NCBI GenBank assembly: GCA_965153355.1
Contig: OZ231126.1
Coordinates: 15,004,001-15,068,000 of the forward strand
Reading direction: 5' to 3'
Length of the DNA: 64,000 nucleotides
Origin: Flaccisagitta enflata
Lineage: Eukaryota
Shown here in pieces: positions 2,529-49,019 of this stretch (positions within the stretch are counted from its first letter, which is position 1; each line of letters opens with the position of its first letter). The position numbers and the translations under genes were made by a program. The notes beneath the pieces are model-generated. The model saw only the letters and a list, made by a program, of their open reading frames with translations. It had not been told where the DNA came from and did not search any database.

Positions 2529-12902
<10,374 letters not shown>

Positions 12903-13428
12903 GGAGTATGGGAAACGTGACAGAAAAGGCAAATATGTCTTGTCAATTTTCGCTTCCCTGACTCGGCTTTTATGTACTGCCCACTTCCTTTGTAAGCCAA
13001 CAATTCGGATCGCTATCACTAGTATCACTACCTATTAGTATTACATTTTATCTCAGATATTCACAATGATGAAAATGAACATTTTGTAAAATAACAACTG
13101 GGTCATTATCATTCTACCTTATAGATGTTACGTCCTTTGCAAAAATGAAAAACCGTTAAGTCTAAAGACTAATATCTTCAGTCTAAAGACTAATATCTTC
13201 AGTCTAAAGAGCTTCAATTTAGAGCACTTTCGCAGTGATCTGAATCGTTCCTCTTTGAAAAGGAAATCCGTTTATTCCGACCCTAATTCATTTTCCCCAT
13301 TCACGCCGTCATCTCTGATGCTCGTCAATTCTAAACCATTTCTCCGCTCTTTTTTCTGCCATCGAATTTTCAATTCTCCCCCCTTCCCTCCTCCTCTCAC
13401 CCATTCGGCCTTCACCCTTCCCTCACTT

Positions 13429-13492
<64 letters not shown>

Positions 13493-13882
13493 CCTCTGTT
13501 TTTTCTGCTGCAACAGGACCCACTTGCTTCGCTCTCTTCCCCTCAATATTCCTTCGATCTATCCATAACACGTGCCGCTCGCGCGAATCAAAGCCATCTG
13601 TTCCCAAGTTTTTGTTTTTTTCCTCTCTCTCGTGCGCTCGCTCTCCACTCGTCAATATTTTCGTGCTCTTTTTTTCTGTCCTGTCTCTCTATCTTTCTTT
13701 ACCTTTTAAGTCGCGTGCACGCGACTCAGTAACCCGCTATGTTGGCCGGTTGGTCTGGTCTGTCCATGAAAGGTTTTTGCATCCTGCCTATTTAGACCGT
13801 AAGTACCCGCTTAGCTTTTGACATACCTGCCCCTGCACGCTAGTTGGGTAGCCGTGTATTCGGTTTTGTTTTCTCGGTCTGT

Positions 13883-14053
<171 letters not shown>

Positions 14054-14181
14054 CAATCCTCCGGCTCTCATAACCCCATACTATCTTCCTCCCTTTCCCT
14101 TCCAACTTCCCTTTCTTTTGCTTCGATTCCTCATTCCCATAGGCGTCATAGAAGAAGACCCCCTCTGGCAGGAAAATGGAG

Positions 14182-15544
14182 CGCCAACCCCTCTTTTTTT
14201 TCCTTCCTCCTCCTCCTCCACTTCTTTTCTTCCTCATCTTCCACCGCGACCAAGTGTGAAATGTGACTGTTTTAGATGCGTCATCGTGGTGAGATCTCGA
14301 CGACGCAATGTTATTGGTTTTGGGGTAAACATAATCACGAGTGTTCATGAATACTATTGACTGAAGGGAGGACAGGATTGATTGGCACGGTTTAAAGGCG
14401 TATGGCGCTGGACTAATCGATCATATGCAAGTCTACAAGCATTCAGCTCGTGTCCAATCTCCATACCATTTTTATTCGCGTGCTACGCGACTCTTCCCCC
14501 CGCTTTGTCTGTCCGTCCGTCCGTCCGTCCCACATTTCCTTTCGTGATTTTCATTCTTTAAACTCACTGCTCCTGCCCAAATGGTCCAGTGGCCTCAAAT
14601 ATGGCCCCTGCCCACCCGCACGCGATTGAGATCCGACCTTTGTTTTAAAAGGTACCATCTTAAATTATATCCAACCCCGCAGCATCGGATCTAAGAAAAG
14701 AAGTTATCCGCCCACAACACAATCCCTTTCCATGCAATAAAAACAAGGCCGGATACACGGGCCAAGACGGTGCGCCGAGCGTTTTTTATTCATAGCTATC
14801 CCTAGCTCCATCAGACTTATCCCTAGCTCTATCAGGCCTCTCCCGAGCTCTATCAGACCTTTCCCAAGCTCTTATCAGACCTATCACCAGCTCTATCAGA
14901 CCTTTCCCAAGCTCTATCAGACCTATCAACAGCTCTATCAGACCTATCCCCAGCTCTATCAGACCTATCCGACCTATCCGATCTATCACCAGACCTATCC
15001 GACCTATCCCCAGCTCTATAAGACCTAACCGTAACTGATTATATTAGTATCATTTATGATATATATGATATATATGATATATATGATATATATGTTATAT
15101 ATGATATATGATATGATATGATATATGATATGATTTATGATATGATATGATATATGATATGATATGATATATGATATGATACATGATATATGATATGATA
15201 TATGACAGGATATATGACAGGATATATGATATGATATGATATGATATCTGATATGATATATGATATGATATATGATATATGATATATGATATATGATATA
15301 TGATATATGATATGATATATGATATATGATATGATATATGATATATGATATGATATATGATATGATATATGATATGATATATGATATGATATATGATATG
15401 ATATATGATATATGATATATGATATATGATATATGATATATGATATATGATATGATATGATATATGATGTATATATATATATGAAATGATGTATGATAAA
15501 GATGAGAAAGAGTGTTTTTCAGATTCTGTTTCACGGAAAACTAG
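14182..15544. repeat. direct repeat copy 1 (1363 bp), putative giant target-site duplication of the LINE
   Basis: Matches 31501-32883 except for 2 substitutions seen, a 9-bp unit in the 21-bp minisatellite and length of the (ATATG)n array. Abuts the LINE tail. Confidence 0.9.
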
Positions 15545-15805
15545 AAATTGAAATTGAAATTGAAATACATCTATTTAACCCGAGACATGTTAAGGACACA
15601 AGATCAATAAACATATCCAAAAGGGTGCGTGCATGTGTAGTGCATAAAACTAATTTGATGGCACAAGATACATGAGCGTGAAATTTTACAACAGGCTTTG
15701 CGAGAATATATCAAATTGGGCAGAAAAGCTAAATGGTTGCGAAAGCAGTGTCGTCGTTTGGGCTAAAAGCAAAAGCTACATTCCGACGGCTGCGTTTATA
15801 CTTGG

Positions 15806-16674
15806 TGTTAGAAATGTATGTCCGTCCGTCTATTAAGTATGAGTGCATTTGTTTCTTTTGCGTGCTTTTGGTTTTTCTTCTTTTCCTGTTATTCAGTGCC
15901 GGCGTCTTTTGTTTCTCGCCATTTTTTATATTGGACGCTAGATGGGTAACCATATGGTTGCGCCTTGTATTTTGTGCCATTTGTTTTTATTACGTAGGCA
16001 AACATACGTAACTCGTCTTTCGTATCATCCAATTTTGGATTGATTGATTTTATTATTTACGGCATTGCTTCTTAAAGTGATTGATTGATTTTTCGTGATC
16101 GATTGAATGCGCCCTTGGAATTCACTAATTTCAATAATCTCTCATCTTTTTATTGCAGATAAACTTATGAACGGACAATTAACGTTAGTTTGACATCGAC
16201 AGACTGTGGGTTGAAACCAACGAAAGTGGGCCTAAAAGTAAGTTTTATAGACGCGTCTTTGCTTTTATTAACGTTGTTTTTATCTTGTCTTCCGGTCTGA
16301 TTTTAGTATGGTTTTTATCGCTTGCCCGATCAGCTTGCTATAGGGATGATATGAATGAATTTAATGGGATGGGCCGGGGCAGGTATTATCAGGTGGCATG
16401 GGCTCTGAAGAAGATGAACATGTTGTCATGTGCTGTTTCTGTCCTTTATTGTGTCCTATCTCGATTTCATGTTATCTTTTGCGTTTGCTGATCACCATTA
16501 ACGCCCACTTTCCCTTTCATTTTTCCCCCTCTCTTCAGTTGTTGAAATTTTTATGGAATAAACGAGACGATCGCCTTCCTATTTTCCAATCGGCCAACTT
16601 TCTTTCACCACAAGTCGTCAGTCAGATAGACGCTCATAGACAGTGCCAGTTGAAACTCGTGGGCGTAATTTATA
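15806..16674 (+). repeat. 5' LTR (869 bp)
   Basis: tgttagaaatg...gcgtaatttata. Differs from the 3' LTR by 2 substitutions, a 1-bp indel and a 6-bp indel (by eye). AATAAA at 16557. Confidence 0.93.
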
Positions 16675-16733
16675 TTTCAGCAATTTAAAAGCAACTCGAC
16701 TCTTTACATCTTGACCTCCAGCGAAATTGGACA

Positions 16734-19700
16734 ATGGCGGCGCGGCAGCGACGACACCGTCTCGGCTGCTTCAACGTCATCTCGTGTATCTCACTTCGGT
16801 TTGAATCAGTGTCCGAGGTCGGATCGTTTGCGCGCGATGAGAAACGACATCACGGCGGAGATGGAAGGATGCCGGCGCCTTTTCGACGCCGTTGCCGCTT
16901 ACGCCGAAGGATCGAATGATTTCGACGACGCCGCATGTGAATCAGATGGCGCTCGACACGGCCTTCGGGATATGGTCTACGACTTTATATCATACGCAAG
17001 GCAAATGGCGCTCGACTCGATGCCCGGCGACCCTCTTCGGTCGCGGCGTCCACTCTGCGTCGAATCCGGCGCGAATGGAACTCCATGCGTTTCTTCGATC
17101 GTGAAAACTATCCAGAGGGTTTTCCTTCCAACGCCGACATCGTTAACGCAATGCACAATGACATTGGGAATCGTAAAAGACCCGTCAATGAATTCTCATG
17201 GAACAGTCTCCCAACTGACACTCATGCCCGTGACAATGTGACTGGGCTCCAACACCAAGGATGCGGAACGTCTTGCCAAACCGACGGATCCGAGTATCTA
17301 CCACTTCCGGCCCCGCGACATAGTGCGCAATCTCCAACTGGCGGTCAATTTTAAATCTGCCGCCGATCCAAAGGAGATGCCGTCAATCAGTGGGTCTCGG
17401 ATTTGGTCTCGGAAATTGAACCTGCGCGTGCGTCTCCGATGGAGCAAGCTGACGACATGCTTGCGGATCTCGACGACGCCGATGCTCTTGCAAGAGGTCG
17501 TGGGATTATCAACGGACTGACGCCGCAGGAGAGGGCGAGGCGACGCTTCGTCAACAGGAGTGCGGAGAGAGACAGATGGGGTAGACAGCTGGAGGAGGAA
17601 ATGCGACAAGGCCGGCGGCTGATAGATGATTTGCAGCAGCAACAACGGGAGGAGGAGCAGCGACAGCAGGACAACAGCAGCAGCATCAATTGCAGATGCA
17701 GCAGCAGCAGCTCCAACAGCAACGTCAACTCCACCGACCACAGGAGCAGCAGCAAACGACAGCTCAACGGCAGCAGCAAGAGCTGTTGCAGCAGCAGCAG
17801 TTGCAGCAACTTCAACAATTTCGTCAACAAGACCAACAACAACGTCAAGTCTTGCAGCCGGCGCCACAACATGTGGTTCAACAACAACAACAACGGCGGC
17901 AGCAGCAGCAACAGCAGCAACAGACAGCAACAAGGGCTGCAACAACATCAACGGTTATGCTTGCCGCATGAACAACAACAACAGCGGCAAAATAATGAAG
18001 ATGAACGTATGCAACAGCAACTGCAGCAGCAACAGCAACCTTCCGCCGCGATCCCAGCGGTGGTAGTGGATCCTCCAGCGTCAAATAACCATCCTGTCGA
18101 AAGCATGAGCGTCAGTGAAGAAACAGAAGAAGAAGAGAGACAGCAGCGCCTTGCAGAACACGTCTGCGCATGATGGCTGAAGGTGAAGGTGGTGGTGCAG
18201 CAACAGCTCCAAAGGCGCCGATCGCGGTGCCATTGGGATTCCAACAGCGAAGCTCATCACAAGAAGACAAAGAGTTGTACGACAGAATGTGTAACTTTCG
18301 CCAGCAGCAGCAACGAGATAAAGATAGAAGAGCAGGAGTATTCAATAATGCGGCAGAAATGCAACGAAAACACTGGAATAGCCTGAACGACGGCGGCATT
18401 GGTGGAGCTTTAGAGCAGCGGGATGTGAAGCTTAGACAACTGTCTGAGCTGGACAAGCAGCAGCCGCAGCATCCGCCAAAAGACCGTCGATCTATCTTCT
18501 TCAATCCGGGATTGTTTCGAACTTACAGCAACGTCATGTGCAGTCAGTGGAAGCGTCCGTCAAGCAGCCGATGCAGCAGCAACAGTTGGAGCAGCAGCAG
18601 CAGCAAGGACAGCGTCAGCGTCAACTGCAGCAGCAGAATGAACAGCAACAGCATCCTGACCAGCAACAGCAGCTTCAACATCAACAGTGGCAGCAGCAAC
18701 GGCTTCAACAACTGCAACAGCATCAGGATCAGCATCACCAAACCCCAGCAGCAACGATTCTCCCTACCGCACCGGAAGTGATCTTCGAGAAGCAGATTGG
18801 TTCTGCTAGAAGGGAGACTGAACTTCCCCGTCAAGAGGAAAAGGTCTTCAACACAGCCGGAAGCGGAGGTGATGCAACGGAGGCGATGCGCAGGAGGCAG
18901 AAGCAGGAGGCCGCTGACGCGAAGTTGGCACAGCAGCTGCAAGATAAGGAGAGAAGAAAAGTCGCTCCCAAGAAGGCAATGAGTGGATTGCAGCCGAAGG
19001 CGCCAAAAGTAGCGCAAGCGCCTCTAGCAACGCCTCAAGCGGAAGTCATCCAGCAGAATCAACGTTTGCAGCAGGAAGTGGATAGTTTGAAGATGCAGAT
19101 TCAGCAGAGAGACTTTGACCTTGCCGCAGCGAGAGAAGAAGAGAAACAACGTAAAGAAGAACAACAACAGCGACAGTACGTCCGCCAAGATTTTGATGCT
19201 CCCCGATTCCATCAAGATGATCGTCAACAACAAATGAATCAGCAGGAAGAAGTTGGGTGGAGTGTGAAAACTACCAAAAAGAGATCTCCGGTCAAGGTCG
19301 GGGGTCAATACGCGTTCACCCAACAAGAGCCAGCGTATCATCAGGTGGAGCTTCATCAAGTAGCTCGTCAACCGGAAGTCCATGTACAGATGCCCAACAA
19401 TCCGGCTCTGGACATGTTCCTGGAGAGGGCGGCGTACAACGATTATATGCGAGCAAGGGAGGTCGGCCTCAAAGCATTGGAGAGAGCAAGACCTGAGAAG
19501 CCTCTGCAGGAGCTTTCATCCACCGATTTCATGATGTGGAAGAGGAAGTTCAAAGATGCTGAAAAGCATGAAGGCTTGACGCAAATGGACATTTTATTGG
19601 AATTGCCTAAGTGGTTTGCTGGTCCAGCAAAGGAGATCATTGAAACTGCGACGATTGATGCAACTGAAGCGACAGCAAGAGGAGAGATTGACGACGCCTT

Positions 19701-20597
19701 CGCAAAAATGGACGTCGTCTTTATGGCAAGGCGCTGCAACATTGCGGCGCTGTTCAACGAAATCGTCGCGGAGGCGGATCCAGTCGGCCGACCATGCAAG
19801 GCATTTCAATTTGTCTGCAAGGTTGCAAAGGCAAAGAAGATTGCGAGGACCTGTGGGAAGTGCAACACTGCTATCGTGACGAGCTGCTGCAGGAAATCCT
19901 CAATAAGAGGGTCCCTCATCTTGCAGATAAATTTTGGGAAAAGCAACATGAAGCAACCCAGAAAGGACAGTCATTTTCATTCGACAACTTGGTCAACATG
20001 ATTGAGACATGGGCGGTGATTCAGCGCAACAAAGGTGCAAGCTGCAAAACAGCGTCAGTGGCAGCAGTCGCAACGACAGAAAAAGAGGCGCCATCATCAT
20101 ACGAGGATGCTTTGACCAATGGCAAGCAAAAGATGCAGTCGACGGACCGCTGCAACGTCTGCAGTGGAATGCATCAAACAGAAGAATGTCATCAGCTGTT
20201 AGAGTTGGAAGTGGACGCGAGAGTTCAAAAGATCATGTCTCGTCGTCTTTGCTTCCACTGCCTCGCGCCAGGACACAACGCCAAAGGATGTGCAAACAGA
20301 CCAACTTGCCAGATCTGCAAGAAGCGGCACACAACAATTCTCCACGGGCGCACCTACAAGAAAGAGGAAAAGGAAGAGAAGAAAGGAGAGAATAAGCAGG
20401 GAAATAAAGTACCGCTGGCTCCCTTCAAAAAGTCAGAGGATGCGGCTGCAGCAACACCAACAGCTCCGTCGACGGCGGAGGCAGCCAATCCTCACGGAAG
20501 TGATCTCTTCCAACGTCACGGCATGACTGGCGGCGACGGCAGCGTCGCGGTCCGTCTCTTCATTCGGACGGCGTTGTCCGTCCGATTGTTCCAGTGA
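16734..20597 (+). pseudogene. frameshifted Bel/Pao gag with long Gln-rich N-terminal region
   Basis: Coding-like sequence hops among frames (ORFs 16711, 17085, 17403/17690, 18170, 18538, 19794). Bel/Pao knuckles CNVCSGMHQTEEC, CFHCLAPGHNAKGC and CQICKKRHTTILH. Start position approximate. Confidence 0.85.
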
Positions 20598-22455
20598 CTA
20601 TCATAAACAATTCTTCGGGTGTGCAGAGGACGATATACGCTATGATCGACTCAGGCGCTGATCGCGACGTGATCAGTACCAATGTTATTCGCAGTCTTCT
20701 GATTCCGACAAAAACAGTGCAAATGACGGTGATTACTGTGGGAAATCATGTTGTTGAGGATCGTTTCATCGCATCATTCACCATGAAGTCGGTCGACGAG
20801 GAATATGTCGTCGACATCAACGACGCGTTGGTGGGTGATTTGTTAACGAGTGAACGCGACATTCCTCCTTTTCTCCGCGACCTATCCGACCAACCTCACA
20901 TCAGAGATATAAAGTTTCCAGAGGCAGAAGGCGGTGTTATGATGATCATCGGAGCGGCGCATGCGGATGCCGCCGTCGCTCAGGAAGTCCGCCGAGGGCC
21001 TTCAGGATCCTTGACTTGCTTCAGATGTTTATTCGGTTGGACTGTATGTGGAAAAAGGGAAGAGGGGCGAGATTTTGCATCGATCAACGCCATCGCAACG
21101 GATGATCGCGTCCTCCACGACAGCATCGATCGCATCCTCGACAATCGCGTCCTCAACAGCAACATCGACCGCATCTTCTACCATGACTTTGCATCACCAA
21201 TCGTCTCGCAAGAGGAGATGGGCGATTCCCTTGAAAACATCAGAGCGTGCAAAATGTTAGAGGAAAAGACATACTTTTGCCCAATTGCAGCAAAGAATCT
21301 TCTTCCTAAACCGGAAGTGACGCAAGACGTCTTGGAGGAGGCGCGCAAACAGCTCGTCAAGTCAATGCAGCGGCAACATTATTCCGACGTTTTCGAACAA
21401 TTGGAGTTGGGAAAAGCCTTTAAGCCAGGAAGCCGTCGTGACTTTATCATCAAGAACAAGGAGGTGCTAAAGTTGAACCCTTTCGTCGATGACGACGGCA
21501 TCCCTCGCGTCGGCAGCCGATTGGAGAATGCCGACATCGCACATGACGCTAAATTTCCCTTCATCCTTCCGCCAAAAGACGAGGATGTGAAATCATTAAT
21601 TCGCCATTATCGTCATAATGATTTTCACGCGGGTGCAAAGCATACATTGTGCCAATTACGCCAATTTGTGTGGATTACAGAAGGTCTTCAGGCTGTCAAG
21701 AGCGTCGCCAACACGTGCTTCAGATGCCAGAAGAACTTTAAAAAGAACGCGAATCAGCGAATGGCTAATCTTCCATCAAATCGCATCAATCCTGCACCTG
21801 TTTTTACAGAGACCGGATTGGATATGTCAGCCGATGCGATGGTAAATGCAATCATCCGCTTTGCAGCAAGGCGCCCAGGAATCAACCGATTCACTTTAGA
21901 CTGTGGAACTAATCTAGTCATCGGTCTCTTCAAGCGCCATTTGCTTCCATCTCTACTGGCCATCCTTCACGTCGATGCCTTCAACACTGCTGTCGTCGAA
22001 GTTGAAGGAATTCTCAACCGTCGTCCTCTGACAGCGCTCAGTGATGATTAAATGATTCTGAGGCCCTCACACCGAATCATATCCTCAATCCATCAACATC
22101 CGGCAACGCCTCTCTGGATCTGGCGCAACAAGGCGTCAACTCTGACGCCGACTCAGCGAAGATTCAATGGAGGCGTGCGCAATCGCGTGTGGATGCGTTT
22201 TGGAAATCGTGGAGGGTCGAATATTTGTCGCTTCTTCACGCGCGAAGCAAATGGTCGAGATCCGAGAGAGACTTTGCGGTCGACGACATGGTCGTCGTCA
22301 TGGGCGAAACGCTGCCTCGTCACAATTGGAGTTTAGGACGCGTCATGGGTGTCGAAGGATCATCAGCCCATGTCCGGAGGGCTTATTCTCAACGCCAAGA
22401 TGAAAAGATCGTGAAAGACCGCATAAAGCTTCTGCGGCTGGGATTGGATTCATAA
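20594..22455 (+). pseudogene. deleted Bel/Pao pol: protease joined to partial integrase; RT and RNase H missing
   Basis: Protease YAMIDSGAD; LNPFVDDDGIPRVGSRL; integrase zinc-binding region HAG..CFRC; core fragments TGLD, RFAARR, DCGTNL, EVEGILNRRPL; then a frameshift to FWKSWRVEYLSLLHARSKW..WSLGRV. No RT YxDD region is present. Confidence 0.88.
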
Positions 22456-23534
22456 AAAACGCTAAGTTTTGAGAGAGAGAGAAAAAAGGCGCATGGGCCT
22501 GTCCATTAGTAACTATAGATATGAGTGATTGAAACTCTGACTTGTTATATTTACAAAGAGTTGTTATTATTCATATTTGGTTCTGATTATCCATGCTTTC
22601 ATCTTTCCTCTTGTCAATTATGTTATCCATTTCCATTAACACATCAAAAACACTGATTCATTCGCTCTGTCTACATGTACATATGATTGTGCCAAAATCC
22701 ATTCTTATCATTATCAGTTCGCGTTAACGAACATTTCAAAGCTTCCGCTGACGACGTTGTTCCATCTGCGAAGTCAGTCTACATCTTGAAGTCGCTCGTC
22801 GGAGTCAAGATGTCCCGTCAGCATCCGGCTCCACCTGCGCCTTTCGATGCGGTCGCCGTTTGACATCATTCATCGCCTTTCGCCCCGGAGTTGACGAGAT
22901 GTTGGAGCCAGAATGACCGCTCGTCTCTGTAATGGAGAAGGCGCAGGTGATGTGGTCGTTCCATGATGCTTACTAATTTTTTCTTTTACTTAACAGATTC
23001 GTTTTTATATATAGTTAGTAATTTATTTAATTTTGTCTTGTTTTGTTTGGTTCCTTGGAACATGTACATTTTTGTTGTGTTTGTTTTAGACATGTCTTTT
23101 TAATCTTTATTACGAATACTTTCGTATGATATGTTTTTAGTAGTATGCCCCTACTTATTATTTTCCACTCTCAAGTCAAATCCCAGGCTTGGAGTGCTCC
23201 AAGGCCCGTTCCCCCTTTCCCCCCCCTTTCCCCTTAACTTTTTCAGAACGGGTGCCTCAACCTCCTCGTCTCCGCCTCGTTTCCATCCGCGTCATCGTGA
23301 TCGTTGAAAATTTGCTGGTGGTGGATCCTTTCCGGACGGGAATCATCATTCGTGCAGTCGTCGATCTGTTGATAGTTAGGGTGGGGATGTAAGAGGCGGT
23401 GGACGGGGAGAGGGGCGGGGCTGTGTCTATGTAATTTTTTTAAGGAAGGTAGTATCGGTTTTTAGTAGGGTTTCCCGACTGGAAACTAGATGTCGGAGTT
23501 TTGAAATTCGTGAAATTCCAAAAATGGGGCAGAA

Positions 23535-24408
23535 TGTTAGAAATGTATGTCCGTCCGTCTAGTAAGTATGAGTGCATTTGTTTCTTTTGCGTGCTTTTGG
23601 TTTTCTTCTTTTCCTGTTATTCAGTGCCAGCGTCTTTTGTTTCTCGCCATTTTTTATATTGGACGCTAGATGGGTAACCATATGGTTGCGCCTTGTATTT
23701 TGTGCCATTTGTTTTTATTACGTAGGCAAACATACGTAACTCGTCTTTCGTATCATCCAATTTTGGATTGATTGATTTTATTATTTACGGCATTGCTTCT
23801 TAAAGTGATTGATTGATTTTTCGTGATCGATTGAATGCGCCCTTGGAATTCACTAATTTCAATAATCTCTCATCTTTTTATTGCAGATAAACTTATGAAC
23901 GGACAATTAACGTTAGTTTGACATCGACAGACTGTGGGTTGAAACCAACGAAAGTGGGCCTAAAAGTAAGTTTTATAGACGCGTCTTTGCTTTTATTAAC
24001 GTTGTTTTTATCTTGTCTTCCGGTCTGATTTTAGTATGGTTTTTATCGCTTGCCCGATCAGCTTGCTATAGGGATGATATGAATGAATTTAATGGGATGG
24101 GCCGGGGCAGGGGCAGGTATTATCAGGTGGCATGGGCTCTGAAGAAGATGAACATGTTGTCATGTGCTGTTTCTGTCCTTTATTGTGTCCTATCTCGATT
24201 TCATGTTATCTTTTGCGTTTGCTGATCACCATTAACGCCCACTTTCCCTTTCATTTTTCCCCCTCTCTTCAGTTGTTGAAATTTTTATGGAATAAACGAG
24301 ACGATCGCCTTCCTATTTTCCAATCGGCCAACTTTCTTTCACCACAAGTCGTCAGTCAGATAGACGCTCATAGACAGTGCCAGTTGAAACTCGTGGGCGT
24401 AATTTATA
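23535..24408 (+). repeat. 3' LTR (874 bp)
   Basis: Copy of 15806-16674, preceded by the PPT and followed by TSD cttgg. Confidence 0.93.
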
Positions 24409-24495
24409 CTTGGAATATTTTTTCCACTAAAGTAGCATTAGTCCAAAGGCACAAGCGAAAGTCCGAAGGCACAACCGTCGTCGTCGTCGTTGTCG

Positions 24496-24534
<39 letters not shown>

Positions 24535-24612
24535 TCGTAGTTGTTTTCGTAGTTGTTTTCGTAGTTGTTTTCGTAGTTGTTTTCGTAGTTGTTTTCGTAG
24601 TTGTTTTCGTAG

Positions 24613-24660
<48 letters not shown>

Positions 24661-25198
24661 TTGTTGTTGTTGTTGTTGTTGTTGTTGTTATTGTTTTTTT
24701 CGTTGTTGTTTTCGTTGTTGTTTTCGTTGTTGTTGTTGTTGCTGTTGTTGTTGTTGTTGTTGTTTTTGTTGTTGGAGAGCAGGACTGAACGAGATCGGCG
24801 CGGCGGACGGCGACTTGCGGGAATTGCAAGTTTCGAAATTCGTCACGGGCTTGGGCTCGGTCATCGTGAGACGTAGACATGTGGAGGAACAATGATGGGG
24901 ATGAAGAATGTTAAGATGTTGCCAAATTGACTGGGTTACATTGTACAACGTAAACGTTATACAGTATTCGGCTCACCTGAGGCTACAGGTGCTTGTGCCT
25001 GCACCGAATATCCTCCAACGCTGCCCGCTGAACCCCGGGTCCTATGCGCGGACAGAAACCGGCGGCGCCAACAACGCTGGCGCTGCGAACCAGGAGATCT
25101 TGAGGCTTGAGCTTTAAGCGGCCCCCAGGGGCTTAGGGGACCGGTGCTCTCGAAGTTGGCGTACGTTTGGTTGCCGATTCGAATGGTGAGTGCGAGAG

Positions 25199-25275
<77 letters not shown>

Positions 25276-25309
25276 CGATTCGAATGGTGAGTGTGAGAGA
25301 TGGTTTCGG

Positions 25310-25379
<70 letters not shown>

Positions 25380-25456
25380 CGCTGCTGCTGCTGCTGCTGC
25401 TGTTGTTTTTTTTGTTTTGTTTTTTGTTATTGTTGTTGTTGTTTTTGTTTTTTTAA

Positions 25457-28381
25457 TTAAGATCGCATAGCAGCAATTTCCGAGTCACTAAAGATGCATT
25501 CAGTCACGCTTTTGTATATCCCCGAAGCATTGTCTCTTCGTTCATCAGTGATTTTTTTCCCAAATGGGCTGAATCGAATAATTGCGGTTACTCGTTTTTT
25601 CGCAAATGCCGTAAGTTCCTCTTGAATTGATTTGATACCCGTGTGATGACAAAGTGTGTCATAGCTCGTATAACTCGGGACGCCGCAGTAGAATTTCACA
25701 CAACGTGAGTGGATTTTTTTCAGTTTGTCCCAGAGGCACGCGTTCATGCTAACGTAAGCAACTGAACCATACTTCCAGATCGAGTTAACAACGGCATCGT
25801 GCAGTTTGATGACGCGTTCCGGATGGCTCCACGTTGATTTTGCGGATATGGATTTGAGGGCGCTAATTCTTGGAATGGCGCTGCCAATCATTTCATCAAC
25901 ATGACGCTTCCATGTGAGTTTTTCGTCAAAGCGGACACCGAGGAACCTGTGACTTTGGACTTGCTGTAGGACCTTTCCGAGTAGCTCAATGCGTACAGTC
26001 ATTCTTTGATGTGTTGGACGTCTGCTGAAGAATATGAAGACGGATTTTTCTGGAGCGAGTTTGATGCGCCAATCGCAGGTCCATTTGGCAAGACGTTGCA
26101 AGACTTTATTCATTCGTGCCTCTGCCCGTCTTGGGCATGCATCACTAATCCATAATGCCACGTCATCTGCATATTGGGCAAGGTTGATGTTTTCATCAAT
26201 TCCAAGAATTTTTTTCAAGTCGTCGACAAATATATTGAATAATGTAGGACTAAGCACGGCTCCCTGAGGGGTTCCCGCAGCCATGTTGACATTGTCTGAA
26301 ATGATTTTGTCAACCTTAACTCGGAGAGATCGACTTGTGAGAAAGCCTTTTATGACACATAGAAGGTTTAATGGCAACCGCATCATCAGTAGCTTCCACA
26401 TTAGTCCCGATATCCAAACGCGATCAAAGGCGCCGGAAACGTCGAGAAATACTGCAATGACACATTCCTGCTTTGCAAAGGCGTGATTGACGTCCTCAGC
26501 TAGACGGAGAATATGTTCTTGGGTGGATCGTCCTTTTTTGTAAGCTGCCTGATGAATGTTTTCTGCAATTTGTCGTTTCCGTTTTTCCATTTCTAAACGT
26601 TCTTTGATGCTGCATTCGAATAATTTGGAGACGCAACTTGACAAACTTATCGGCCTCCAATTTTTTGCTTCTTTGAGGTCTTTACCCGCTTTGGGGATCA
26701 TAGTAATCCTCACTGATCTCCATTTCTGTGGAAAGTATCCGGCGACATACAAACAAGTAAAGAGTTGTGCAAGACCAACTATGAAATTTTTTCCAGCATT
26801 CTTAATCGCCTTATAAGTGACGCCATCTGATCCCGCCGATGACCGATTTTTCCGACTTTTCAAATGATATCTTATTTCATTGACAGTGATTTTTTGCGGA
26901 TGAAATATTGGCGGCGATTTTTTCCCAAATCTGCCAATTCTCTCTTCATCTATGAAAAATGATTCATCCTTTTCCATGATAATTTTTGCCTTTTCGAAAT
27001 CTGGCTTAATCAGCTCCAATGCTGCGTCGACTTCCGCGCTGATTTTTTGACGATGAGTTTCAGAAAAGTTGGCATCCGATGGAAAGCTGTGAGCAGTTGC
27101 CAGCCTGTCAGAATGTATTTTTGCTATCGAAAGGTCGTCCTTATGCAAGATTCCATTTGCATCTCGTATGCCCTTGTTGTTGTGCTCATGACTTTTGCTG
27201 TTACCCAGATTTGGCGCCGCGTCCTTTAACATCTTCCACGATTTAGCGCCATCTTTTTCATTCCATATTTTGGTCATTTCATGCGACTCTTTCTTCTCCA
27301 TATCTCTCTTGATACATCTTTTTATATCTCGGTTAAGTCGATTATTCATTCTTCTTATGACTTCTGTATCTTTGCCTTCTTCTTCAAGCTCCTTCCGTAT
27401 CTTATTCAGTTTTCTTCGTAGACTTATGAAATTTCGAGTTTCTTTTGATAGAACAACTCCGTCTCTCGTCAGCACTTTTAGCATTTTGCTGTGTTTATCA
27501 ACGGCTTCATTGATACTTTGGCAAATATCACTTATAGTTTCCTCCGTTCTATATTCGTTGCTGCAGTTAACCAAAGGCTTTATGTCTTTTAATTCATCTT
27601 TCACTTTCTCCCAATCAATTACTTTTATTGTTCTTTTTCCAGTTTTGAACCCAATGTCCAGTTTGAAGGAAGTTATCACATGATCTGATCCGCACTGGCC
27701 ATCTGTGAACCATTTTGTCGACGATGCGCTTGTCTTCAGCTTCAGCAGACAAAGGTCGATGCATGATGTAATGTTGTGACTAGTTGAGAAATAAGTGGGA
27801 TCATCATCATTTTGTATCGCATAGCCGTTAGAGCAAGCCAAAGAGGTAAGCATCTGTCCGGCTTTATCTGTCTTTTTTGTGTGCCCAAGACCTATATGCG
27901 CATTCATATCGCCAATTAGAACCGCTGCTTCAAAGTTGTGTGACAATCCCTCAAGAGCGTCAAAATGCTTTTGCAGTAGAATCTCACCAGGATGAAGATA
28001 CACAATTGCTAACCTTAATCTTTTGTTGTCAGTTTCCGCTTCAATAACTATCAACTCGTTAATGTTATTTTCGATCTCCGAGATTTTTATTCCATTTTTT
28101 ACCAATATGAGAACCCCTCCGGGCACAGCAGTTCCACTATGATGATCTTTTCGGATGCATTTGTATCCTTTGAATCTTATAGACTGATTTCTTTTTAATC
28201 TTGTGTCATTTATGCATATAAAATGATTGGTGACATTTTTCCTTCTATCAATCAGCAAGCCAATTTCATGTTTCTTGTTCTTGATAGAGTTGATGTTTAT
28301 TTGATCGATGATGATACTGCTGGAGTTGCTGCTGATAGCATTACTACCGGCATTACACGCCACTGCAGCTCTTGTGGACAT
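25457..28381 (-). CDS. LINE ORF2: AP endonuclease + reverse transcriptase, 974 aa
   Basis: APE motifs QININSI, ICINDTRL, GGVLILVK, GDMNAH, CIDL, GSDH; RT motifs WRPISLSSCVSKLFE, AYKKGRST, FLDVSGAFDRVW, GTPQGAVLSPTLFNIF, QYADD, FLGVRFDEKLTW. No stops or frameshifts. Confidence 0.95.
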   Translation of the reverse strand: MSTRAAVACNAGSNAISSNSSSIIIDQININSIKNKKHEIGLLIDRRKNVTNHFICINDTRLKRNQSIRFKGYKCIRKDHHSGTAVPGGVLILVKNGIKISEIENNINELIVIEAETDNKRLRLAIVYLHPGEILLQKHFDALEGLSHNFEAAVLIGDMNAHIGLGHTKKTDKAGQMLTSLACSNGYAIQNDDDPTYFSTSHNITSCIDLCLLKLKTSASSTKWFTDGQCGSDHVITSFKLDIGFKTGKRTIKVIDWEKVKDELKDIKPLVNCSNEYRTEETISDICQSINEAVDKHSKMLKVLTRDGVVLSKETRNFISLRRKLNKIRKELEEEGKDTEVIRRMNNRLNRDIKRCIKRDMEKKESHEMTKIWNEKDGAKSWKMLKDAAPNLGNSKSHEHNNKGIRDANGILHKDDLSIAKIHSDRLATAHSFPSDANFSETHRQKISAEVDAALELIKPDFEKAKIIMEKDESFFIDEERIGRFGKKSPPIFHPQKITVNEIRYHLKSRKNRSSAGSDGVTYKAIKNAGKNFIVGLAQLFTCLYVAGYFPQKWRSVRITMIPKAGKDLKEAKNWRPISLSSCVSKLFECSIKERLEMEKRKRQIAENIHQAAYKKGRSTQEHILRLAEDVNHAFAKQECVIAVFLDVSGAFDRVWISGLMWKLLMMRLPLNLLCVIKGFLTSRSLRVKVDKIISDNVNMAAGTPQGAVLSPTLFNIFVDDLKKILGIDENINLAQYADDVALWISDACPRRAEARMNKVLQRLAKWTCDWRIKLAPEKSVFIFFSRRPTHQRMTVRIELLGKVLQQVQSHRFLGVRFDEKLTWKRHVDEMIGSAIPRISALKSISAKSTWSHPERVIKLHDAVVNSIWKYGSVAYVSMNACLWDKLKKIHSRCVKFYCGVPSYTSYDTLCHHTGIKSIQEELTAFAKKRVTAIIRFSPFGKKITDERRDNASGIYKSVTECIFSDSEIAAMRS

Positions 28382-28398
28382 GCTGCATGTTAGTTGAG

Positions 28399-31122
28399 TT
28401 AATCAAGTTGACGCCAGATTGAGGATGCAATGGAGGTTGCAACGCTGAGTGGAGTGATCCAAACTGCTGCGAGTGTTGAAGGAGGAGGAGGAGGAGGATG
28501 AGAATGTTGATGCAGGTGTGATGGAAGCGTTGGTGGCGCCGCTGCTGCTGCTACTGCTGCTGATGTCGCTTGTTGAAGGGATGCCATTGGCGTTGCTGGG
28601 GCAAGAAGATGAAGATTTGATGCATCTGTCAACATGCCTGTCTGTATTACTTTGGGCTGGACTGCCTCAATTGTAGATCCCATTGATGGCGCTAGGAGGT
28701 CACCCATTATCTCAGCGCAGTCAAGTAGAGCGTTTGGTGCATCTCCCCAACACCTGACCTGAATGTTAGGGATTGCTGATGCATCTGCATTTTTCCTGCT
28801 TTTTTCTTGATGACGTTGTTGATGAAGATGAGCCGTTGGAAGAGCAAATTGCTTGTCCATTTGTGCCTCAACTTCCATACAAATCTCGTTGTTTTGTGCA
28901 ACTGGGTGTGCCTTGGAATTCGCCAATGCTGTTGCAGTTGGATTGATCTGATCAGAAGATGCTGCAGATGGATGCGTCATTGCAGTAATTGTTTTTGATG
29001 ATGCTGGTGATGCTGCTGTTGATGGTATGTTTGCTGTTATAGGAAACGAAGGAGCGTTGAGTCTTGCTGCTTTTGCTGCTTCAGTGGCGGCTGCTGCTGC
29101 AGCTGCCGTTGCCCTTGCTTCTGCTATATCAGCTTCCTTATTCATTTGTGACATTCGAGAGTTTCTCCGTGGTGACGACGCGGGGCTTACACCAGGACGA
29201 GTTTTGATGTATTCATTCTCAAACAGACTTCTGGCAAAGATTGCTATATCAAAATTGTCGCCGTATTTTTTGTTGACCAATCGAACACTGTCATCAAAGA
29301 TTGATCTTTTGTCAAGTGCCGTATTTGAGATCTTGGGAGCAATAACATCAACTACCAATTCGACTGCTGCTGCAAGAATTCTCGTTGCATCTTCAGATTT
29401 TATCTTTCCCAGCGTCAATTCGCCATCATATCTGTTTCTGACAGTTGATGGGGCAGGATGATTGAATTCTTGACCAGAGTTGAGAGATGAGAGTTGAGAG
29501 ATGGTTTGCTCACTTTGTCGCGCGTTAGAGTAGAGATTTGGATTGACAGAGGGCATTGAGGGCGCAATTTCACTTTGTTGATTTTTTGCCACCGCAGCAT
29601 AAGTTTTTTTCTTTCTCTCATCTCGTTGGTATTTGATTTTGGCTGGACAGCCCTTGAAAGTTGAGAGATGATTTTCACCACAGTTAAGGCATGTGGCTGT
29701 GTCTTCTCCTGCTGTGCAATCCTTCTGGCTGTGTTCTTTGCTGCCGCATTTTATGCAGACTGCTTCATTTTGACAATCTATGGCAATATGCCCGTGCTCA
29801 CCACAGTTAAAGCATTGATTCACTTTAACAGTTGTATGTCTTTGTACCGCATACCTTTGATATCTGAGGAGGAGGCCATCTTCAACCAATTTGTCAGCAT
29901 CACCGGCTTTATGTATGATGGCTCTCATTGTGAGAGTCGGTGATTTATTAGCCCCAGTTTTTACTCTTTCCAAGTTGCAAAATGAGATTTGTCGCTTCAT
30001 TAGAGCCTCTTTTACTTCGTCTTCTTTGATGTCTTCTTCTACCCACTTGATGTAGACTGTTTTGGCGAAATTGTCAGTGAGTGCAAGCCTGGGAATTAGA
30101 CTTATTTCGCTTGTCTTCCACCTTTCTTGAAGCATCATTGTATTGAAATCTTTTTGGGTCTTTCCAACGACCAGAATGTCATTTTTCCTTGTTTTTCTTA
30201 TTTCAAGGATTTCACATTCGGCTGGCTTGTGCTCTTCAACTATTTTTATCAGAGTTGGCCGACTGTCAATTTGCTCTTGACTTAGATTGTGACCCAGCAA
30301 AAGCCCAAACGGGTTTCTTTTGTTCCCAACCTGACGTCTTGGTTGGCCTTGTCCTGTTTTAGCTCTCGCACCTTGTGGCAGGGAGGATACTGGCGTAGCA
30401 GACTGACCAAGCTTAGTCCCAGTGGCAGTTGTTTGTGACGCTTGAGACGCCGCTTGATGTTGACGGGTATCCGTTGGTACTTGGTTCACAGATGCTGAGA
30501 ATTTGGCTGTGAGTAATTTTGTGTTTCCAATTCCAATTATTGATGAAGATGCAGCTGGCGCCGTCGATACGATACCTGCTGAGGTGGTTACTAACGAGGA
30601 AGGTGCTGCAGATGCAGACATTGTCGTCGACGTGGTTGCTGCAGATGTAGTCGTCGTCAATACGGCTGCTGCAGATGTTTTTGTTGATGATGCAGTTGCT
30701 GCAGATGAAGCATTAGAAAGCCCATTTGCAGATGTATCAGCCCCCGTGGAAGGTGGTGGCGCAAATCCCACGTCGAAGGACGAGTTGGGAAGCGGGAATT
30801 GATGTGCAGCCATTATGCTGTTTTTGTTGTAGATGGTAGACGCGAGATCTAGGGAAGGAGCTGAAGGTGACGCCGTCTCTTCAGAGCCGGCTGAGCTAAC
30901 GTCGTCTCTTTGTCTTTTACGTAGTGGCGTTATTTTAGACCTTTTTCCGCCTTTGCGACTTTTTTTCTCTTTTGTAGCATCACTGGCTTCTTTATCTTGA
31001 GCGGAGTTAGACAGTAACTCTCTTATTTTTTGTTGGATCTCACTCGGAGCATTACAGAAACGTGAGGTTATTTCTTTCTCTTGGTCAGCTGTCTCAGCTG
31101 ACTCGTGAGACATGGATGACAT
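28399..31122 (-). CDS. LINE ORF1 nucleic-acid-binding protein (gag-like), 907 aa
   Basis: Three zinc knuckles CFNCGEHGHIAIDC, CIKCGSKEHSQKDC and CLNCGENHLSTFKGC, preceded by an RRM-like region (KTVYIKWVEEDIKEDEVKEAL). ATG in caaccATG context. Confidence 0.9.
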   Translation of the reverse strand: MSSMSHESAETADQEKEITSRFCNAPSEIQQKIRELLSNSAQDKEASDATKEKKSRKGGKRSKITPLRKRQRDDVSSAGSEETASPSAPSLDLASTIYNKNSIMAAHQFPLPNSSFDVGFAPPPSTGADTSANGLSNASSAATASSTKTSAAAVLTTTTSAATTSTTMSASAAPSSLVTTSAGIVSTAPAASSSIIGIGNTKLLTAKFSASVNQVPTDTRQHQAASQASQTTATGTKLGQSATPVSSLPQGARAKTGQGQPRRQVGNKRNPFGLLLGHNLSQEQIDSRPTLIKIVEEHKPAECEILEIRKTRKNDILVVGKTQKDFNTMMLQERWKTSEISLIPRLALTDNFAKTVYIKWVEEDIKEDEVKEALMKRQISFCNLERVKTGANKSPTLTMRAIIHKAGDADKLVEDGLLLRYQRYAVQRHTTVKVNQCFNCGEHGHIAIDCQNEAVCIKCGSKEHSQKDCTAGEDTATCLNCGENHLSTFKGCPAKIKYQRDERKKKTYAAVAKNQQSEIAPSMPSVNPNLYSNARQSEQTISQLSSLNSGQEFNHPAPSTVRNRYDGELTLGKIKSEDATRILAAAVELVVDVIAPKISNTALDKRSIFDDSVRLVNKKYGDNFDIAIFARSLFENEYIKTRPGVSPASSPRRNSRMSQMNKEADIAEARATAAAAAAATEAAKAARLNAPSFPITANIPSTAASPASSKTITAMTHPSAASSDQINPTATALANSKAHPVAQNNEICMEVEAQMDKQFALPTAHLHQQRHQEKSRKNADASAIPNIQVRCWGDAPNALLDCAEIMGDLLAPSMGSTIEAVQPKVIQTGMLTDASNLHLLAPATPMASLQQATSAAVAAAAAPPTLPSHLHQHSHPPPPPPSTLAAVWITPLSVATSIASSIWRQLD

Positions 31123-31465
31123 GGTTGCCGTTGTTTGCGAGCAGTGAGGAGGAGGACGAGGAGGAGGAGGGAGGAGACAACGGTTGCTGTTGTTGCTGTA
31201 GCTCTCGTGTTGCTGTGATGATGCCAGACAACGATAGTAGATAGTAGATTATCCTTACGAAATATTAATTATTATTCAAATGAAATAGAAAAATTTTTTT
31301 TTTTTCCATAGACAGCCCCCGTCGGGGCGGCCACGTGTTTATTTTCTTTCTGCTACTTAGGTTTTTATTTTCCGTCTCCGAGAAAAATGGTCAAGTCGTT
31401 TTCGAACAGAGTTATTTTTGGGCGAGGAATTTTCGTGGATTAATCGGGCAAGAGAAAAAATAATT

Positions 31466-31499
31466 CGTCTTCTCCTTGCGAGTCTCGAGTCGTGAATGA
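31466..31499 (-). promoter_or_regulatory. LINE internal Pol II core promoter (Inr + DPE)
   Basis: The minus strand reads TCATTC (Inr TCAKTY, A+1 = 31497), G at +24, and AGACG at exactly +28..+32 (31470-31466). This is the canonical Inr-DPE spacing of jockey/I-type LINEs. Confidence 0.75.
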
Positions 31500-31500
31500 A

Positions 31501-32883
31501 CGCCAACCCCTCTTTTTTTTCCTTCCTCCTCCTCCTCCACTTCTTTTCTTCCTCATCTTCCACCGCGACCAAGTGTGAAATGTGACTGTTTTAGATGCGT
31601 CATCGTGGTGAGATCTCGACGACGCAATGTTATTGGTTTTGGGGTAAACATAATCACGAGTGTTCATGAATACTATTGACTGAAGGGAAGACAGGATTGA
31701 TTGGCACGGTTTAAGGGCGTATGGCGCTGGACTAATCGATCATATGCAAGTCTACAAGCATTCAGCTCGTGTCCAATCTCCATACCATTTTTATTCGCGT
31801 GCTACGCGACTCTTCCCCCCGCTTTGTCTGTCCGTCCGTCCGTCCGTCCCACATTTCCTTTCGTGATTTTCATTCTTTAAACTCACTGCTCCTGCCCAAA
31901 TGGTCCAGTGGCCTCAAATATGGCCCCTGCCCACCCGCACGCGATTGAGATCCGACCTTTGTTTTAAAAGGTACCATCTTAAATTATATCCAACCCCGCA
32001 GCATCGGATCTAAGAAAAGAAGTTATCCGCCCACAACACAATCCCTTTCCATGCAATAAAAACAAGGCCGGATACACGGGCCAAGACGGTGCGCCGAGCG
32101 TTTTTTATTCATAGCTATCCCTAGCTCCATCAGACTTATCCCTAGCTCTATCAGGCCTCTCCCGAGCTCTATCAGACCTTTCCCAAGCTCTTATCAGACC
32201 TATCACCAGCTCTATCAGACCTTTCCCAAGCTCTATCAGACCTATCAACAGCTCTATCAGACCTATCCCCAGCTCTATCAGACCTATCCGATCTATCACC
32301 AGACCTATCCGACCTATCCCCAGCTCTATAAGACCTAACCGTAACTGATTATATTAGTATCATTTATGATATATATGATATATATGATATATATGATATA
32401 TATGTTATATATGATATATGATATGATATGATATATGATATGATTTATGATATGATATGATATATGATATGATATGATATATGATATGATACATGATATA
32501 TGATATGATATATGACAGGATATATGACAGGATATATGATATGATATGATATGATATCTGATATGATATATGATATGATATATGATATATGATATATGAT
32601 ATATGATATATGATATATGATATGATATATGATATATGATATGATATATGATATATGATATGATATATGATATGATATATGATATGATATATGATATGAT
32701 ATATGATATGATATATGATATGATATATGATATGATATATGATATGATATATGATATATGATATATGATATATGATATATGATATATGATATGATATGAT
32801 ATATGATGTATATATATATATGAAATGATGTATGATAAAGATGAGAAAGAGTGTTTTTCAGATTCTGTTTCACGGAAAACTAG
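31501..32883. repeat. direct repeat copy 2 (1383 bp)
   Basis: Starts cgccaacccctc.. immediately after the LINE 5' end and ends ..cacggaaaactag like copy 1. Confidence 0.9.
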
Positions 32884-48442: not shown

Positions 48443-49019
48443 CAGATGCACATTGTCACAAGTCTGATTTCCATAAGACATTCGCTTCTTCACACTTGCT
48501 TATTCCCTATTCTATGTTTTCGCAGATAAATACAACGTTGTCGCATCTCAAAAGAGATAATTTGGATCATTATTATAATAGATGTCTCCAAGGGGTGGAA
48601 GGGGTGGCTAGGGTGGCTGGAGGGGTGGCCTGAGCCACCCCACCGGCCACCCTGGCCACCCCAACAAAAATTAAGCCACCCTATGAATTTCATTTATTTC
48701 AACCACCCCCCACCCCGGCCACCCCCCACCCCGGCCACCCCCCACCCTGGCCACCCCCCACCCTGGCCACCCCCCACCTTAGCCATCCTCCACCTAGCCA
48801 CCCCTCACCTTGGCCACCCCCCACCCAGCCTCCCCCCACTTTAGCCACTCTTGTAACTTTAATCCCCTTATACACCTTACCAACCACTTAACATGCTGCA
48901 AAGTTAAACACTTTAATTGCCACAAAGTGAATCACTTTGCCTGCTTGCTTGTCACAATGTGAAACACTTACCTATCACAATATGAATCACTGTGTATCAC
49001 TTTGCGTGCGGCAGAGTGA

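Follow-up and report, generated by a model that had tools for sequence, protein, structure and literature searches.

A Bel/Pao retrotransposon of Flaccisagitta enflata with a conserved non-tRNA site next to its 5' long terminal repeat and a possible Tf1-like self-priming arrangement

The element and the end of its 5' LTR

The 64,000-nucleotide stretch of the Flaccisagitta enflata genome analysed here (contig OZ231126.1 of assembly GCA_965153355.1, forward-strand positions 15,004,001 to 15,068,000; hereafter the window, whose own numbering is used throughout) carries a single Bel/Pao long terminal repeat (LTR) retrotransposon, which occupies positions 15806-24408 of the + strand and is inserted in the 3' part of a long interspersed nuclear element (LINE) of the minus strand. 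Our subject is the site at which this element would prime reverse transcription. The sequence abutting its 5' LTR is not of the transfer RNA (tRNA) type, and it is complementary to a segment of the LTR that is predicted to form the 5' end of the element's RNA, an arrangement that resembles that of the self-priming retrotransposon Tf1.

The features that mark this element as Bel/Pao are a Pao-type protease, an H2C2 integrase with DUF5641, and LTRs accompanied by a polypurine tract and a target duplication of 5 bp (Table 1); the window copy lacks a reverse transcriptase (RT) with ribonuclease H (RNase H) and a primer site for a tRNA 3' end. The Bel/Pao identity proposed in a preliminary description of the locus is borne out by the close match of the protease region to protein record P0001 and by Pfam matches of the integrase region to PF17921 (E = 1.8e-6) and PF18701 (E = 2.5e-18), and a Pfam run on the window open reading frame (ORF) itself gave no Peptidase_A17 match. 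P0001, the closest Pol in the protein collection (1312 aa; PF05380, PF17921, PF18701), belongs to a clade of ~1300-aa Pols (P0001-P0011) that are 32-68% identical to the query and all come from metagenome assemblies; RT (PF00078) is present in the relatives P0003 and P0004. The counterpart of P0001 residues ~224-839, corresponding to RT/RNase H, is absent from the window copy. These domains identify the element as a non-autonomous LTR retrotransposon of the Belpaoviridae from which RT/RNase H has been deleted, and which would therefore depend on a helper of the P0001 type. The two LTRs are 98.97% identical over 875 columns of a blastn alignment, and their differences (two substitutions and two indels, of 1 nt and 6 nt) all lie within 15833-16375, outside both arms of the helix described below.

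The position at which the 5' LTR ends, 16674, had been given in the preliminary description together with the lack of a following TGG, and both were confirmed by the 3' LTR, by the flanks of relatives and by direct reading, as was every letter of the motifs quoted there (TCAGTT, AATAAA, AGACG and the post-LTR 11-mer). The independent LTR-plus-flank records P0092, P0093, P0094 and P0098 share ..TAT A before they diverge, and P0076 is consistent with that end; other LTR ends occur, with P0079 and one contig of RNA library X17 stopping at ..ATT ACA. An end at 16668 with an 11-bp duplication was ruled out, since independent LTR-plus-flank records continue to ..TATA. The final seven nucleotides of the LTR (16668-16674) vary between copies (..ATT TAT A, ACT TAT A, AAT TAT A, ATT ACA, TTT ACA), and the site adjoining this variable end stays constant among copies. 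The window LTR terminates in TA rather than the usual CA, despite its clean 5-bp target duplication. The last six nucleotides of the LTR, TTTATA (16669-16674), also stand at 15795-15800, just before the 5' copy of the duplication, which may be a 1-in-4096 coincidence or a target preference.

The post-LTR sequence at 16675-16685 reads TTTCAGCAATT. Direct reading finds no TGG anywhere in 16675-16727, and a tRNA 3'-end site is therefore absent. No tRNA was found in the window and no Rfam family at gathering score, and the tRNA-like and Rfam matches around the LTR are at chance level only. The family thus appears not to use the 3' end of a tRNA as its primer.

Pairing of the two arms and its conservation in relatives

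The segment 16537-16547 of the LTR pairs without gaps with 16675-16685, in nine Watson-Crick and two G-U pairs. This 11-nt pairing had been noted previously and is lengthened here by a twelfth pair, U16548-A16674; at its other side the helix ends at C16536/T16686. Its coordinates place the 3' end of the supposed primer exactly at the LTR boundary, which upholds the Tf1-like geometry that had been proposed. No other run of at least 8 pairs exists between the LTR and the post-LTR sequence (offsets -1 to +3). Pairing of at least 11 pairs with at most two G-U pairs arose at offset 0 in 187 of 20000 shuffled LTRs, and in 80 of 8996 comparisons of mock sites with the real LTR; with any number of G-U pairs, the counts were 50/3000 for dinucleotide-shuffled LTRs at offset 0 and 28/919 for mock sites elsewhere in the window. 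Taken alone, the pairing would be expected once in 100 cases, and once in 16 when the offset may vary.

Relatives of this region could be followed through an accidental reading frame. The + frame is open over 16365-16688 (P0075) and covers both arms, and gene callers translated the same frame in other copies; these relatives are known from amino acids only, and their nucleotide states are deduced from codon constraints. The family set comprises 6 cluster representatives with 20 sequences in all, and 27 related records together with a sister family. The residues LQLLKF, encoded by 16533-16550 and spanning the 5' arm, are kept in 19 of the 20 family records, the exception being P0081. Six of the 20 pass from ..LKLVGV into unrelated flank (P0092, P0093, P0094, P0076, P0079, P0078), P0078 with an ambiguous LTR end, and 13 cross from the LTR into the internal part; all 13 have the same non-tRNA site. 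At this junction nine 96-aa records and P0091 read [T/I/N]YISTI, P0082 is in the other phase (YFNN), and P0080 and P0095 read FQQF. In P0091, a relative of 16365-16900, the post-LTR site is duplicated in tandem at a distance of 21 nt, with three intervening codons (Leu-Gly-Pro); the first copy has the A form described next.

The only variation within the arms is at 16680, which is A in 11 of the 13 family junction records and ambiguous in two (Gln, CAR). When the sister family is included, A is found in 17 of 19 junction records, with two ambiguous, so that the G of the window copy is unique; both A and G pair with U16542. The A in relatives implies no more than one wobble in most copies. Wherever the codons determine position 16684, it is T.

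This variation bears on the caveat, raised earlier, of a 3' splice acceptor. On such a reading the post-LTR TTTCAG would serve splicing or trans-splicing, and its complementarity to the LTR would have no meaning. The window copy does have a pyrimidine tract followed by CAG at 16669-16680, as such an acceptor requires, whereas 17 records read TCA ACN, with no AG there, and thus conserve the site and not the acceptor; moreover, among the rows shown, contigs from RNA libraries have no joints or loose ends at 16680. The caveat is accordingly weakened, and we consider a splice acceptor very improbable.

Among sequencing data, the stretch is represented in two DNA runs of one organism, in many marine metagenomes and in some RNA libraries. 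In DNA run X1, 9147 contigs match 15701-17200, and the summed depth is ~10^6 over the LTR, about half of that in the internal part and 10^2-10^3 in the flank; this depth and number of contigs indicate that the family is hugely repeated. The X1 depth holds at the family level across 16651-16700, and among the 40 of 85 substitution rows that are listed none falls between 16526 and 16764. A contig of RNA library X16 covers 16521-16690 with one difference and no gap. The 8 substitutions of the X17 RNA contig are confined to 16342-16525, leaving 16526-16670 free of them, after which the contig reads ..ATT+ACA and enters unrelated sequence. The X16 and X17 contigs break at branch points of the assembly graph and are uninformative on RNA ends.

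The window copy is defective in pol, and it might likewise have lost a normal tRNA-type site through a deletion or mutation of its own, as a dead copy could. The same site is, however, present in 19 of 19 junction records from two families (13/13 in this family and 6/6 in the sister family), no TGG site occurs in the relatives, the X1 depth is maintained over the site and the X16 contig crosses it gapless. We give this explanation hardly any credence.

The sister family emerged from a profile-free search of 1.84 billion representatives with P0091, which returned six matches, three of them new: P0096 and P0097 (54-56% identical) and P0098 (44%). Cluster members P0099-P0102 enlarged it. Its R-U5 part (repeat and unique 5' regions of the LTR) is diverged and frame-shifted relative to the window family, and all six of its junction records read [N/I/S]YISTILKLDR, which is the same post-LTR site. 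Its 5' arm is seen in two phases, as SVVEIF (P0096, P0098, P0100) and as MLKF (P0097), and the two codon phases, taken together, show 16538-16548 to be the same as in the window. Between the arms, by contrast, the sequence is diverged and frame-shifted. In P0096 and P0100, where both arms are visible, 8 pairs are determined, seven of them Watson-Crick and one the wobble G16538-T16684, and four others rest on third codon positions. Leaving aside helix positions 10-11, the relatives would form a perfect 10-bp Watson-Crick duplex, subject to three third positions left open by the codons. Codons of the sister family also imply GATAAA in place of AATAAA. Contiguous conservation past the LTR ends after ~12-13 nt, at an indel in a run of T, which is more in keeping with a short primer than with a tRNA site of 18 nt. 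Both arms appear to be kept in the family and its sister family. Two of the findings that the preliminary description had named as refuting self-priming, a normal TGG site in relatives and a pairing not conserved across families, are thus contradicted by the records.

A site conserved in this way is also what would be expected of any primer site, and the primer at 16675-16685 might be a host RNA that is not the 3' end of a tRNA, such as a half or an internal fragment of a tRNA, which copia uses, or some other small RNA; the match to the LTR would then be incidental. Half-tRNA priming is known in Ty1/copia lineages (PMC6317226). Were A the base of the true host primer at this position, the conserved G-U at 16538/16684 would not matter, and by our own reading the reverse complement of the site may resemble an anticodon loop (Y-U-GAA-A). 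Against a host primer stand the absence of any tRNA-like match around the site and the 10-11/11 match to the exact predicted start of R that such an RNA would need to have by accident, when a match anywhere in the LTR is expected in only ~1%. The anticodon stems of cytosolic tRNA-Phe in model animals are not known to fit positions 7-11. Priming by such a host RNA is in our judgement unlikely.

Neither a protein query, an alignment query nor a 25-nt LTR pattern found a match in a collection of viral contigs, and neither a 20-nt pattern nor an alignment did so in a collection of genome contigs. Metagenome contigs scanned with a Pol alignment gave four loci, L001-L004, none of which extends to the junction of 5' LTR and primer site: L001 holds the 3' part of pol, a third ORF and ~330 nt, L002 begins inside gag, and L003 and L004 each hold a fragment of pol. 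Between L001 and L002 there is an overlap of 888 nt (98.8%), and the two were kept unjoined. The third ORF of L001 (2510-4807), a relative from the same Bel/Pao clade, follows pol, encodes 765 aa with no Pfam match and is possibly env-like; there is no trace of it in the window element.

Predicted RNA start, folding and the points against self-priming

Of the three TCAKTY motifs in the LTR (16517, 16535, 16618), the one at 16535 supplies the A at which the helix begins, 20 nt upstream of the sole AATAAA; no TATAWA was found in the LTR. A helix that begins at an initiator (Inr)-like A, 20 nt before the only AATAAA, begins where the R region should begin, and on these two motifs 16537 is the predicted 5' end of the genomic RNA. 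AGACG at 16565-16569 (+29..+33) resembles a downstream promoter element (DPE), with a spacing that deviates by one base from the canonical one. For a site of this sequence, a partner that starts with an Inr core preceded by TC would occur in ~1 case in 64, by our own estimate made with no simulation. The predicted start lies in a conserved block, read as NAHFPFHFSP in one frame and SVVEIF in another, which holds two of the Inr-like motifs (16517, 16535) and looks like a core promoter. P0081, a relative of 16428-16534, is family-like through the unique 3' region (U3) to ..SPSL (~16534) and unrelated thereafter; it switches within 2-3 nt of the predicted U3/R border, a recombinant LTR and an insertion being indistinguishable at the amino-acid level. 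In L001 (4960-5135), a G-rich purine run is followed by the start of the presumed 3' LTR, which contains TCAGTTG at 5125, the same heptamer as at the predicted start in the window and 5 nt before the contig end.

The location of the 5' arm within a larger conserved block (~-37 to +16), typical of a core promoter, raises the question of whether the arms are conserved separately, as core promoter or Inr and as a leader element, or as a helix of 5' end and leader that serves packaging, dimerisation or translation control, with another primer in use. Other blocks of the LTR are conserved too, the arms are without covariation, the fold is unexceptional and both arms have competing pairings, all of which such a role would accommodate. 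An LTR element must, however, have a minus-strand primer site abutting U5, and there is no other candidate here and no TGG for 50 nt; in addition, every junction record has the end of the helix precisely at the LTR boundary. We consider conservation for such other functions distinctly unlikely.

RNA folding is compatible with the helix without singling it out. The bimolecular duplex of the two arms has an energy of -10.5 kcal/mol, the proposed helix has an ensemble probability of 0.26-0.52 and costs at most 0.4 kcal/mol to force, and it is part of the minimum-free-energy structure of a 364-nt transcript. The model thus makes the helix plausible, and not dominant in the fold.

A number of results weigh against self-priming and have to be set beside those above. 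The 164-nt RNA of 16537-16700 is no more stable than its shuffles (z = 0.31), and its minimum-free-energy structure pairs the 5' end with a second site (16690-16696) and not with the post-LTR site; this second site is not kept in the sister family; a local 7-bp hairpin of 16649-16655 with 16675-16681 is also possible and would compete with the helix. The chance of the pairing rises to 6-10% once offsets 0-5 are allowed (1210/20000 with at most two G-U pairs; 313/3000 with any G-U count), and the longest uninterrupted Watson-Crick run in the window copy is 6 bp, below the 10-bp complementarity criterion of PMC6317226. Compensatory covariation, which had been put forward as a check of the pairing, did not materialise: at the amino-acid level no double change between the arms occurs among relatives, the arms being essentially invariant apart from the one-sided G/A change at 16680. 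Plain conservation of the arms is also expected from an Inr or promoter block or from any primer site, and the LTR has further conserved blocks. P0096 and P0100, the two sister-family records in which both arms are visible, retain the wobble G16538-T16684. Transfer of plus-strand strong-stop DNA copies the primer into the new site, by which T16684 would become C and form a G-C pair, and the conserved wobble therefore argues against a strict Tf1 mechanism, although it could persist if the RNA starts at ~16539 or if the 5' end of the primer is not copied. The earlier suggestion that the G-U pairs fit RNA-level pairing consequently cuts both ways: one wobble is private to the window copy, and the other is conserved where copying of the primer should erase it.

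RNA data add to these difficulties. The raw poly(A) RNA run X22 (a 1.8-Gb sample) gave 0 reads at a likeness of at least 85%. Contigs from RNA libraries cover U3 as well as the predicted transcript, and P0091, which we take to be transcriptome-derived, runs from U3 through R-U5 into the leader; if this is a single transcript, its start lies upstream. Assembly through R and read-through are equally possible explanations of this span. As a separate observation, X22 is labelled as the same organism and yet holds no read of an LTR family with thousands of copies, which would suggest either tight silencing or that the organism is not in the run.

The coordinates of the features are collected in Table 1. 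Within the element, positions 17600-18900 form a long Gln/Ser/Asn-rich low-complexity insert in the N-terminal region of leader/gag, in which several frames are open. Around it, the LINE at 25457-31248 of the minus strand has an ORF1 with a CCHC knuckle and an ORF2 with APE endonuclease and RT, the closest relatives of ORF2 being metagenome proteins of 53-54% identity. Direct repeats of 1.4 kb (14175-15544 and 31495-32883, 97% identical) flank this LINE; their interpretation as LTRs of a second element was rejected, since the LINE lies between them. Short-period tandem repeats with units of 8-14 nt occupy 24445-25500, 13341-14092 and 15121-15480, and a further array of ~1.2 kb with a 24-nt period is found at 48992-50207.

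Table 1. Features of the Bel/Pao element and its flanks, in window coordinates
Feature	Position	Strand	Basis or remark
Target-site duplication CTTGG	15801-15805 (5' copy); 24409-24413 (3' copy)	+	5 bp
5' LTR	15806-16674	+	869 bp, TGT...ATA; blastn against 3' LTR
Conserved block around predicted start	16500-16552	+	~-37 to +16; NAHFPFHFSP in one frame, SVVEIF in another
Inr-like TCAGTT	16535-16540	+	Predicted +1 = A16537; motif reading
5' arm (proposed self-primer, cut after nt 11 or 12)	16537-16548	+	Pairing, relatives
AATAAA, only one in LTR, putative poly(A) signal within R	16557-16562	+	+21..+26 from A16537
U5 copy of GTTGAAA	16649-16655	+	LKL codons kept in relatives; role presumed
3' arm, non-tRNA site abutting LTR	16674-16685	+	Kept in 19/19 junction records
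Second site AGCAACT, 7 nt, complementary to 16537-16543	16690-16696	+	Minimum-free-energy choice for short transcripts; not kept in sister family
Leader/gag N-terminal region, long, Q-rich	16700-19300	+	Translations
gag core with CCHC knuckles, frameshifted	19345-20414	+	tblastn with L002 gag, 26-29% identity
Pao-type aspartic protease region (DSG)	20642-21307	+	Matches P0001 (residues 1-223) at 200/223 positions
Integrase remnant (H2C2; core with two gaps) and DUF5641	21287-22455	+	Pfam, comparison with P0001
Polypurine tract	23520-23534	+	Touches 3' LTR
3' LTR	23535-24408	+	874 bp; 5'-arm sequence repeated at 24268-24283

Possible self-priming and its relation to known systems

The anatomy of the element, its lack of a tRNA-type site, the exact geometry of the helix and the conservation of both arms in the family and its sister family are direct observations, and from them we infer the start site, the RNA cleavage and the priming itself. 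The genomic transcript would begin at the Inr-like TCAGTT (A16537) or slightly upstream of it, some 20 nt ahead of the single AATAAA. Its first 11-12 nt would then bend back to pair with the 11-12 nt adjoining U5 (16674-16685). Cleavage after nt 11 or 12, by RNase H from a P0001-type helper, would leave a new 3'-OH to prime minus-strand strong-stop synthesis from exactly the last LTR base. Such Tf1-like self-priming is our best reading of the locus; it is unproven, and we hold it with slightly more doubt than confidence. That the whole Bel/Pao clade to which the window family, its P0001-type autonomous partner and the sister family belong, all of them from marine plankton, primes itself with a cut 5' end of its RNA is a proposal we make a shade more hesitantly still.

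If self-priming is true of this family, it would be the first case in the Belpaoviridae and a third independent origin among LTR retroelements, and each of the three superfamilies of LTR retrotransposons would then include self-primers. The choice of primer defines lineages, and it ties LTR retroelements to host tRNA pools and to defence based on tRNA fragments. In so abundant a family, the beginning of R and the primer site would be forced to evolve together, which would make it a natural system for following their co-evolution. If it is not true, the conserved non-tRNA site still requires some primer. A full-text literature search, covering result listings and selected passages, found no paper that proposes self-priming in Bel/Pao elements.

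According to PMC7175516, Tf1 primes with its own first 11 nt after an RNase H cut that separates nt 11 from nt 12; S. japonicus Tj1 is read as self-priming likewise (PMC4600332). The window element is like Tf1/Tf2 of Schizosaccharomyces pombe and Tj1 in having no tRNA site, in having an LTR-abutting site complementary to the predicted first ~11 nt, and in that the 3' end of the primer would sit at the LTR boundary. Unlike these Ty3/gypsy elements of the Tf1/sushi group, it is a Bel/Pao element and not a chromovirus, so that the likeness is mechanistic only; it has one conserved G-U pair (two in the window copy), the window copy has no RNase H of its own, and its start, cut and priming are predictions from sequence. 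Outside the Tf1/sushi group, self-priming has been predicted in plants for Tcn1 (Ty3/gypsy) and for TAR/Houba/Osr-1 (Ty1/copia), on the basis of at least 10 bp of blastn complementarity between an LTR segment and the region 0-5 nt after the LTR (PMC6317226). Ours is likewise a sequence-only call of self-priming outside that group, and differs in that the window reaches 11-12 pairs only with G-U pairs, in that the host is an animal and in that the element is Bel/Pao.

With the canonical Bel/Pao elements (Tas, Pao, BEL, Achilles) the window element shares CCHC gag, Pao-type protease, integrase with H2C2 and DUF5641, LTRs, the 5-bp duplication and the polypurine tract. The Belpaoviridae are described by ICTV, in PMC8742986, as primed by host tRNA at an 18-nt site for tRNA-Arg or tRNA-Gly, and Achilles of the olive fly has a site for the tRNA-Tyr 3' terminus (PMC4580426). 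This is in contrast to the present family, in which a TGG site is lacking from every one of the 19 junction records. The half-tRNA priming of copia elements offers a closer parallel as regards the site, which is likewise non-canonical and does not start with TGG; in contrast to those elements, the complementary partner of the window site lies in the element's own LTR.

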